DNA from: a virus
Taxonomy: Duplodnaviria; Heunggongvirae; Uroviricota; Caudoviricetes
DNA: 32,400 bases
Strand: one strand, 5' to 3'
Virus record (IMG/VR): IMGVR_UViG_2778261574_000008
Location: 1 to 32,400 of that record
Shown here: positions 1,690-9,328 of the stretch, one piece after another
Numbering within the stretch: the stretch's first letter is position 1
Layout of the letters: each line of letters opens with the position of its first letter
Notes under the pieces: model-generated
The model's database searches: none
The model's input: the letters and a program-made list of their open reading frames with translations, nothing else
Told to the model about the DNA's origin: nothing
Position numbers and translations under genes: made by a program

Positions 1690-1704
1690 TGGTGTCCCCT
1701 GCAG
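1690..1704 (-). other. Putative prophage attR core: 15-bp fragment matching the 3' end of tRNA-Arg (argW type), CTGCAGGGGACACCA on the minus strand, with no tRNA 5' half
   Basis: Minus strand reads CTGCAGGGGACACCA, which matches my recollection of the argW 3' acceptor end including CCA. Upstream sequence does not form a tRNA, so this is a core duplicate, not a gene. Orientation puts phage DNA at higher coordinates. Confidence 0.4.
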
Positions 1705-1777
1705 ACATCGACTTGAGGCGGCAGGGGATTGATTGGAATGGTGTTTTTTAGATGTGAGAAATATTTTACCCGCTATT

Positions 1778-1978
1778 TTACCCATTGGCGCGGCTTAAGA
1801 GCTTATTTTTGAATTCACAATGGTCACGATATAACCATCTTGCTCGACCGTGGATAACTTTGGCTTTTGGCAGGTCGCCGGACTTAATCCGGTCGTAGAT
1901 GAAGGTTTTACCGAAGCCAGTATCAGCCATGATGAATTTCAAATCAACCAGTGAATCAGGTTGTAGTTCGTGTTGCAT
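1778..1978 (-). CDS. torI: Excisionase / AlpA-family winged-helix DNA-binding protein (TorI-type prophage Xis)
   Basis: 66 aa with an AlpA/Xis-like helix-turn-helix region (FIMADTGFGKTFIYDRIKSGDLP). It sits directly next to the att core at the prophage end, as in the KplE1 (CPS-53) prophage where torI lies at attR. The symbol rests on recalled size, position and family. Confidence 0.6.
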   Translation of the reverse strand: MQHELQPDSLVDLKFIMADTGFGKTFIYDRIKSGDLPKAKVIHGRARWLYRDHCEFKNKLLSRANG

Positions 1979-2021
1979 GAGTGCTATCTCCGAATAGGGA
2001 ATCGAACCTGCAAATCAGGCA

Positions 2022-2043
2022 ATAAAAAACCGCATTGATGCGG
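2022..2043 (-). terminator. Intrinsic terminator-like hairpin at the distal end of the leftward early operon
   Basis: Minus strand reads CCGCATCAATGCGG followed by TTTTTTATT, about 80 nt downstream of the 2122..2337 ORF. Confidence 0.45.
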
Positions 2044-2121
2044 CGATGGTATGTCTGGATATCTTGAGAAATGAACAGGCCTCATCGAGTGTGAGGCGGT
2101 GTGATTTCTTTATTTCCACTC

Positions 2122-8932: not shown

Positions 8933-8977
8933 TGCTCTTTAACAGTCATGGTCCTCATTCCCGCCGAAATGCGGGAA
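8933..8977 (+). promoter_or_regulatory. nutR (boxA TGCTCTTTAACA plus boxB hairpin)
   Basis: boxA at 8933-8944; hairpin TCCCGC-CGAAAT-GCGGGA at 8959-8976, identical to the nutL boxB. Confidence 0.55.
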
Positions 8978-9034
8978 TACAACGCGCATAAGTTGATGCG
9001 CATAACTTCTTATTTGTTAAGGAAATACTTACAT

Positions 9035-9328
9035 ATGGTTCGTGCAAACAAACGCAACGAGGCTCTAAGAATCGAGAGTGCGTTGCTTAACAAAATCGCA
9101 ATGCTTGGAACTGAGAAGACAGCGGAAGCTGTGGGGGTTGATAAGTCGCAGATCAGCAGGTGGAAGAGGGACTGGATTCCAAAGTTCTCAATGCTGCTTG
9201 CTGTTCTTGAATGGGGTGTCGTCGACGACGACATGGCTCGATTGGCACGACAAGTTGCTTCGATTCTCACCAATAAAAAACGCCCGGCGGCAACCGAGCG
9301 TTCTGAACAAATCCAGATGGAATTCTGA
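9035..9328 (+). CDS. c1: CII-like transcriptional activator (P22 C1)
   Basis: 97 aa from [35 protein letters not shown]..., matching my recollection of P22 C1; the ORF-track start at 8948 would run through nutR and is rejected. Confidence 0.8.

Follow-up and report, generated by a model that had tools for sequence, protein, structure and literature searches.

The intS-attP-torI module and the locus analyzed here

The closest described system is the recombination module of KplE1, HK620 and Sf6, in which intS, attP and torI are arranged at the argW tRNA gene (PMC2951348). The published maps of this module place five TorI sites (I1-I5), composed of the pentamers GTTCG, GATCG and GTCCG, on attL together with the arm-type integrase sites of the P' arm, which carry a TAAA motif, and they include a 135-bp attR that ends inside torI (PMC2951348, PMC3509656). 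It has also been reported that TorI represses PintS, the promoter of intS, and that excision control must act on the gene for the recombination directionality factor (RDF), with the mechanism left open by Panis et al. (PMC2951348). KplE1, HK620 and Sf6 are the reference system for an arrangement in which attP lies between int and xis and the two genes are transcribed separately. The module was reportedly described by Panis, Mejean and Ansaldi in 2007, and Menouni et al. are said to have later, in 2013, implicated Rho in the control of torI.

The window, by which we mean the whole stretch of 32,400 nucleotides analyzed here, carries the torI end of this module. Its first gene (1-1248) codes for a LacY-family permease; beyond it lies a P22-like prophage, entered from the torI end, with genes for a CI-type repressor, a lambda-type CII, a terminase and a P22 portal. 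The torI-type excisionase (RDF) gene occupies 1776-1978 on the minus strand (66 amino acids plus stop codon; ATG at 1978-1976), and its Shine-Dalgarno (SD) sequence GGAG lies at 1988-1991 on the same strand, within a conserved GGAGATA. The encoded protein shows 100% identity with the products of HK620 hkaC and Sf6 gene 18, and the window has the same P-arm repeats, 15-bp core and leader as the reference module. The P-arm repeats are two arm-type integrase repeats, GGGTAAAAT-agc-GGGTAAAAT (1763-1783, minus strand), which overlap the torI stop codon and carry the 'attP' annotation in HK620; between them and the host DNA, the minus strand reads GATGTCTGCAGGGGACACCA. On the other side of torI, the upstream gene block ends in an intrinsic terminator consisting of GCCGCATCAATGCGGT and a T-run (2021-2044, minus strand; hairpin part 2044-2029), which is common to HK022 and lambda. 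The terminator-to-torI sequence on the minus strand is ATTGCCTGATTTGCAGGTTCGATTCCCTATTCGGAGATAGCACTC, and it carries the 16-mer described below.

Several neighboring features were also observed. The host gene that adjoins attR encodes a LacY-family sugar permease of 415 amino acids, whereas K-12 has dsdC at that place. The permease-side flank GATACCCTTC recurs in many IMG/VR loci, and this therefore appears to be a common alternative arrangement of the argW region in E. coli. Furthermore, two intrinsic terminators lie 330 bp apart on the minus strand (2355-2374 and 2029-2044), whereas in HK620 a single terminator, of the first type, immediately precedes the leader. The extra lambda/HK022-like block between the two terminators of the window, which contains a 71-amino-acid ORF (2337-2122), is a mosaic insertion at the terminator. 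Within this region, CTGTTCATTT (2069-2078, minus strand) adjoins the hairpin GCCTCACACTCGATGAGGC and resembles, at nine of 10 positions, the decamer CTGTTCATAT, which we take to be the 'tor box' of TorR. This likeness is curious given that TorI inhibits TorR, yet it may be a coincidence.

A tRNA-like 16-mer upstream of torI

The leader of torI contains the 16-mer TTGCAGGTTCGATTCC at 1998-2013 on the minus strand. It occurs once in the window with no mismatches, where the chance expectation is about 0.01 matches even with two mismatches allowed. When compared with the annotated argW gene of E. coli K-12 (positions 310-384 of our locus L277), the 16-mer is identical to argW nt 46-61, that is, to the 5' strand of the T-stem, the T-loop and the first 2 nt of the 3' strand of the T-stem. 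The att core CTGCAGGGGACACCA (1704-1690, minus strand) is a 15-bp block identical to argW nt 61-75; it represents the att duplication and is annotated in K-12 as the pseudogene pawZ. The 16-mer and the att core are co-oriented and contiguous in argW numbering, with a 1-nt overlap, and they are separated by 290 bp in which the torI ORF lies (1978-1776, including the stop codon). The original prediction of a T-arm fragment upstream of the excisionase, contiguous in tRNA coordinates with the att core, is thus confirmed against the annotated argW. The interval that it gave, 1997-2015, is correct within 2 nt; the additional bases, A-T on the 5' side and C on the 3' side, differ from argW.

We also compared the 16-mer with 588 distinct tRNAs predicted in all fetched loci. 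A full match (16/16) was found only in tRNA-Arg(CCU), that is, argW, while 13 other tRNAs matched at 15 of 16 positions; the T-loop 10-mer alone is common to 111 of the 588. In addition, the motif was found upstream of torI, hkaC and gene 18 in KplE1 (K-12), HK620 and Sf6, respectively, and far beyond these prophages. A chance match, which had been considered as one possible origin, is therefore ruled out by the expectation of about 0.01 and by the tRNA comparison. The objection that the fragment might match many unrelated tRNAs equally well and be missing from related prophages does not hold either, because only argW matches fully and the motif is kept in those prophages.

A real or degraded tRNA gene is likewise ruled out: ARAGORN detected no tRNA gene in the window, and no tRNA-like Rfam family matched within 1500-2500. 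The 16-mer does not form a T-arm hairpin, since its 3' side is CCCTA where the T-stem needs CCTGC, and no stem around the element is conserved across lineages in the 68 leaders described below.

The 16-mer and the attachment site

The attR core at 1691-1709 (minus strand) forms a dyad, GATGTC / TGCAGGG / GACACC, in which we infer a C half-site, a 7-bp overlap and a C' half-site. The dyad, in the form G-R-T-G-T-C / TGCAGGG / G-A-C-A-C-C, is conserved in 123 distinct attP/attR cores, and we predict for the whole IntS family that its flanks are integrase core-type half-sites C and C' around the overlap TGCAGGG. Immediately 5' of the core, attP and attR carry a conserved, diverged homologue of the T-loop, with the consensus A-T-T-n-G-A-T-G-T-C / TGCAGGG (aagTCGATGTC in the window). 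Judged from these alignments, the phage att site is a diverged T-loop copy that is joined directly to the core. Divergent att cores were found in Edwardsiella (TGCAGGGAACGCCA) and Rouxiella (TGTAGGGGACACCA). All 123 cores were argW-type, and no torI-family module aimed at another tRNA was found in a protein search that reached only about 62% identity or more.

This arrangement has a direct bearing on the relationship between the two tRNA-like fragments. It had been suggested that the 3' region of the tRNA was split around torI. However, the attP/attR sequence has its own T-loop-like C site, GATGTC, beside the core in the 123 cores, and a split of the tRNA by insertion of torI is ruled out. In other words, nothing is missing to the left of the core, and the upstream fragment is therefore a second, extra copy.

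From the dyad of attP/attR it follows that the attB equivalent of the left half-site would be GATTCC (extended form GGTTCGATTCC), which corresponds to argW nt 51-61, just 5' of the putative overlap TGCAGGG. The tRNA identity of the leader element ends exactly at this predicted boundary between the B half-site and the overlap of attB. The 7 bp that follow the element (CTATTCG in the window and CAAACCG elsewhere) show no homology to the overlap, and the would-be inverted partner GAGATA matches GACACC at only three of six positions. Without homology to the overlap, the element cannot recombine, and it is therefore at most a candidate binding site.

The element also differs from the tRNA 3'-end duplications known at prophage borders, such as pawZ in K-12. 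It resembles them in that it derives from the same tRNA, lies on the same strand and is near the duplicated core; in contrast, it lies 290 bp inside the prophage, outside the block of identity between attP and attB, and is present in free phages. Duplication of the att site is ruled out by this position, since argW nt 46-61 is outside the identity block. Given that the element occurs in the free genomes of HK620, Sf6 and Midgardsormr38, it was not created by integration. Moreover, the 135-bp attR substrate with which excision proceeds in vitro reaches only as far as the 3' end of torI (PMC3509656). The element is outside this sufficient attR, and any role that it has would therefore be regulatory and not in recombination itself.

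Two further observations concern the att region. The sequence CCCCTGC (1721-1727, minus strand), 18 nt upstream of the core, is an inverted repeat of the core sequence GCAGGGG (1696-1702, minus strand). The two sequences flank the C half-site, are conserved across genera and may represent a hairpin or a protein site in the P arm. In four loci (L008, L010, L018 and L110), the tRNA-end CCA after TGCAGGGGACA is replaced by ATCC, TATC, ATAC or ATTA, which suggests tandem or secondary-site integrations with strand exchange confined to TGCAGGGGACA.

Conservation of the leader element

We surveyed the leaders of torI-family genes using TorI and its homologues from Edwardsiella, g341c and phiEt88 as queries. 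The loci comprised TorI relatives from one genome per species (21 loci) and from IMG/VR, and they yielded 111 distinct 60-nt leaders. The 10-mer GTTCGATTCC was present with at most one substitution in 68 of these 111 leaders, in which it was invariant but for the one substitution allowed by the search. The base that follows it is C in 61 of the 68 leaders, where the tRNA has T. The family-wide element is GTTCGATTCCC (1997-2007 in the window, minus strand), the last six tRNA-matching bases of which, GATTCC, correspond to the putative B half-site of attB. Upstream of the element, the consensus TTnCAG of the 68 leaders matches TTGCAG of argW. The spacer between the element and the SD sequence is 5-6 nt long and varies by lineage (AAACC, AATCC, TATTC, TGTCC, GGCAC, AGTCC or ACC), and the ATG follows the element at 18 nt in most of the 68 leaders and at 15, 17, 19 or 24 nt in the remainder. 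Some lineages keep extra tRNA-like bases, namely TTGCAGG in E. coli and a 3' CCTG in Serratia and Pantoea.

The element-bearing hosts include Escherichia (E. coli), Citrobacter, Salmonella, Serratia, Pantoea, Erwinia and Edwardsiella. The element also precedes the xis genes of Salmonella phage g341c and Erwinia phage phiEt88, the products of which show 51% and 39% protein identity to TorI, respectively. The leaders of HK620 and Sf6, both free phage genomes, are identical to that of the window, and the 16-mer is also found in KplE1 of K-12. Among 5426 complete E. coli genomes, 1405 (about a quarter) match a 101-bp leader query, although part of this query is the HK022/lambda terminator, so that some of them may lack the motif. 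We also conducted a blind pattern scan of viral contigs for GTTCGATTCC followed by an SD sequence and an ATG. The scan showed 45 matches before TorI-like genes and 75 inside true tRNA genes, and the combination was found before no other gene in these contigs.

The element has been both duplicated and lost. Tandem exact copies, CAGGTTCGATTCCC, with a 16-bp period occur in Erwinia phage Midgardsormr38 and its relatives (2497-2526 in L003; also L135, L136 and L139), and in another locus, L132, the two copies repeat every 13 bp; the leader element was duplicated independently in the two cases. The element is absent from Klebsiella Chronis, in which xis overlaps the upstream gene, from Erwinia EhrS_49 and from several Pantoea loci. 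It is also absent from a Salmonella-type group whose leaders read terminator-TTGCCT-GGAGATAATGAT-ATG (L264, L269 and L271-L276, as compared with L249 and L244). The difference looks like a clean 25-nt indel (GGCTTCCAGGTTCGATTCCCAAACC) that removed the element between GG microhomologies. Since several lineages without the element retain xis, the element is dispensable in some backgrounds.

Taken from these sequence comparisons, the element is a conserved cis part of the xis leader that is under selection. We consider that it is probably a so far undescribed control site for the excision gene, and not a leftover or a chance similarity.

A possible integrase docking site

If the element is a control site, then it introduces the question of which factor reads it. 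The element travels with xis among phages that have different immunity, replication and morphogenesis modules, including P22-like podoviruses, Midgardsormrvirus and a phiEt88-type phage, and the reader must therefore be Xis, Int or a host factor. None of the IHF, Fis and LexA consensus sequences, compared by eye, fits the element. Because the same bases form the putative B half-site of attB, the integrase is the only protein of the module that is expected to recognize the element. We therefore put forward, as a possible but tentative reading, that the element is a low-affinity mimic of the attB B arm that docks integrase to control torI. The two arm-type sites at the 3' end of torI lie about 215 bp from the leader element; IntS could reach the element from there and dock on it via its core-binding and catalytic domains. 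The docked integrase might then loop or block the torI gene, so that abundant integrase would result in little excisionase, for example during the establishment of lysogeny. In the E. coli lineage, where the element is located between a cII-box-like TTGC-N5-TTGC and a -10-like TATTCG, it might double as the spacer of the promoter pI. A broader and more doubtful speculation is that argW-integrating phages of the Enterobacterales have a feedback from Int to Xis by target mimicry, in which the integrase senses its own abundance and shuts off or times the excisionase.

E. coli, Erwinia, Pantoea, Serratia, Citrobacter and Hafnia share an identical argW T-arm, as judged from the genes fetched beside integrase homologues. 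A mimic of this invariant T-arm would stay fixed while the arm-type sites (GGGTAAAAT versus GGGCATAAAT) and the RDF sites drift. For the same reason, a test of covariation between the motif and the host tRNA has no power in the sampled hosts. The known repression of PintS at attL by IntS and TorI provides a parallel in the same module, in which the sites of recombination proteins are reused as operators (PMC2951348). However, the putative target in our case is the RDF gene and not int, and the site resembles a core-type (attB) site and not an arm-type or RDF site.

Several points count against integrase docking. The assignment of the attB half-site follows from dyad symmetry, and integrase would be expected to bind weakly to a B-type half-site that stands alone. 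The tandem copies, as direct repeats with periods of 16 and 13 bp, are unlike the arrangement of core-type sites. The fixed distance to the SD sequence and the ATG is more natural for an element that acts at the RNA or translation level than for a roadblock on the DNA, and Klebsiella Chronis, Erwinia EhrS_49 and the L264-type loci lack the element altogether. An arm-type integrase site, which the original prediction had named among its alternatives, is ruled out, because the 16-mer has no TAAA and is not like GGGTAAAAT; the arm-type repeats are located at 1783-1763 and on the P' arm.

Possible binding by TorI

Another candidate reader is TorI itself, a winged-helix protein of the AlpA family, which may bind GTTCG in its own leader and repress or tune torI, as it does at the intS promoter (PMC2951348). 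A TorI-binding site had also been listed in the original prediction, and the pentamer GTTCG is indeed present within the element (2007-2003, minus strand). Several lineages read CAGTTCG, like the TorI sites I1 and I3, and tandem direct copies, the usual arrangement of RDF sites, occur in two lineages. However, the base after the pentamer disagrees. In 47 P'-arm sites from 16 distinct arms, it is C in 33 and T in 14 and never A, whereas it is A in 67 of the 68 leaders. The conserved ATTCC(C) tail of the element has no counterpart in the TorI sites of attL. In addition, the identical argW T-arm sequence in attL falls outside the coordinates of the five mapped TorI sites; this T-arm was included in the attL fragments used in the reporter and in vitro assays. 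The phiEt88 phage keeps the element even though its P'-arm repeats are CCGATGTAACC-like and not GTTCG, with the proviso that a recent recombinant leader is possible in this phage. Finally, the copies in tandem recur every 16 or 13 bp, which is not a helical period. Based on these comparisons, binding by TorI is possible but disfavored, and we regard autoregulation through the element as unlikely.

With regard to RDF sites in general, P'-arm repeats of the GTTAC / GATGTAAC type replace GTTCG in two loci (L143 and L109), in which the recognition region of Xis has diverged too. Within the family, the RDF seems to have switched its DNA specificity.

A putative element acting at the RNA level

Menouni et al. 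(PNAS, 2013) are said to have found that torI is expressed from read-through transcripts that are normally terminated by Rho. On such transcripts, the motif in the 5' UTR (GGUU..AUUCC) could pair with the SD sequence and the bases before the AUG (GGAGAU..AACC) and keep translation low, and the likeness to a tRNA would then be ancestral or incidental. The fixed distance from the motif to the SD sequence and the ATG agrees with such a model, and for several lineages minimum-free-energy folding predicts the same two-part hairpin. In the structure drawn by hand, 88.9% of cells are pairable, as compared with 34-59% when the partners are slid. On the other hand, RNAalifold found no consensus structure for the torI leader, no pair in the hand-built anti-SD hairpin changed on both sides, and the fold energies of the leaders were no better than those of shuffled sequences (z from -1.6 to +0.85). 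The E. coli lineage, including the window, does not have the AACC partner. Given that T-stem complementarity is absent, the element is not a mimic of the T-arm in structure, and the model leaves unexplained why the anti-SD strand is the T-arm of the target tRNA and ends at the crossover boundary of attB. We therefore think that an RNA-level element has a low probability.

A putative lambda-type promoter pI

The E. coli lineage offers a further explanation. TTGC-N5-TTGC (2010-2022, minus strand) is annotated in HK620 as the cII site of a predicted integration promoter, pI, and the 16-mer starts with the second of these TTGCs. If cII binds these repeats (2022-2010), then the 13 tRNA-like nucleotides would be the spacer to a weak -10 hexamer, TATTCG (1996-1991). 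Transcription would start after the SD sequence and read through across attP into int, and it would yield Int without Xis. At the leader, the HK620 record lists a 'phage integration' promoter as well as a cII site, and the Sf6 record lists pI. Lambda pRE and pI have the same 13-nt gap to a -10-like hexamer.

The comparison with lambda-type phages explains where this annotation comes from. HK022, 434 and Stx phages are homologous to the window over the upstream block and the terminator, up to a point shortly before the element. After the shared terminator, HK022 continues with the true cII box TTGCGTGTAATTGC (TTGC-N6-TTGC) of HK022 and lambda and then xis, whereas the window continues with TTGC-CTGAT-TTGC-AGGTTCGATTCCC. 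The leader repeats thus occupy the position of the HK022/lambda box, and this positional likeness accounts for the cII site and pI annotated there in the HK620 and Sf6 records. What the region has in common with lambda pI is its place between the shared terminator and the start of xis, immediately adjoining both, together with the TTGC repeat. The window also encodes a Phage_CII protein (8948-9328), and an exact lambda pRE cII box, TTGCGTTTGTTTGC (9057-9044, minus strand), lies at the 5' end of its ORF; the prophage therefore has a lambda-type establishment circuit.

However, the leader spacing is N5, whereas it is N6 in all three lambda cII sites and in the phage's own pRE. The first repeat is polymorphic, with TTAC in place of TTGC in K-12 and in 18 of 80 E. 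coli-type loci (22%), and the promoter would lie upstream of xis and not inside it as in lambda. A scan of 1600-2500 for consensus sigma-70 promoters found nothing, and the pI annotation is based on similarity only and explains at most the first 4 nt of the 16-mer. The conserved GTTCGATTCCC does not correspond to a cII box, and beyond the E. coli lineage it is kept in phages that have neither the TTGC repeats nor the -10-like hexamer. Although the geometry is suggestive of pI as a lineage-specific overlay, it seems quite improbable that a cII promoter accounts for the element.

The hypothesis of a relic of an earlier integration

A functionless relic, that is, the left half of an old attB/attL junction that an integrase-mediated or illegitimate event fused to the xis leader and that has not yet decayed, would fit the exact end of identity at the crossover boundary (as in a junction made by integrase), the different extra tRNA-like bases retained in different lineages and the loss of the element but not xis in several lineages, yet it is highly improbable, because the 10-11-nt core is invariant across xis proteins of 39-74% identity while the 5-nt spacer and the upstream flank changed repeatedly, a neutral 11-mer would not survive such divergence, and two independent lineages have duplicated the element. 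The earlier suggestion of a relic of an older integration may thus describe how the element originated, but not its present state.

Significance for the control of excision

The KplE1/HK620/Sf6 module, the pawZ copy of the core in K-12 and the pI annotation in HK620 and Sf6 are already known. In the literature searched, which lacked the two KplE1 mapping papers and the Rho paper, we found no account of a tRNA-like element in this leader, of how widely it occurs or of its match to the attB arm, and AGGTTCGATTCCC appeared in no paper of that literature. In those published site maps of the KplE1 module that are accessible, the torI leader is not covered and the element is not among the reported sites. 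What we propose as new is a recombination-site-like operator at an RDF gene, which would resemble a core-type site.

The element also suggests that short tRNA-like matches inside prophages should not automatically be read as att scars or tRNA pseudogenes. In the reference system for separately transcribed int and xis genes, a conserved element that is located 18 nt before the ATG of torI and is identical to the predicted chromosomal target of the integrase would provide a concrete and easily mutated handle on the excision decision.
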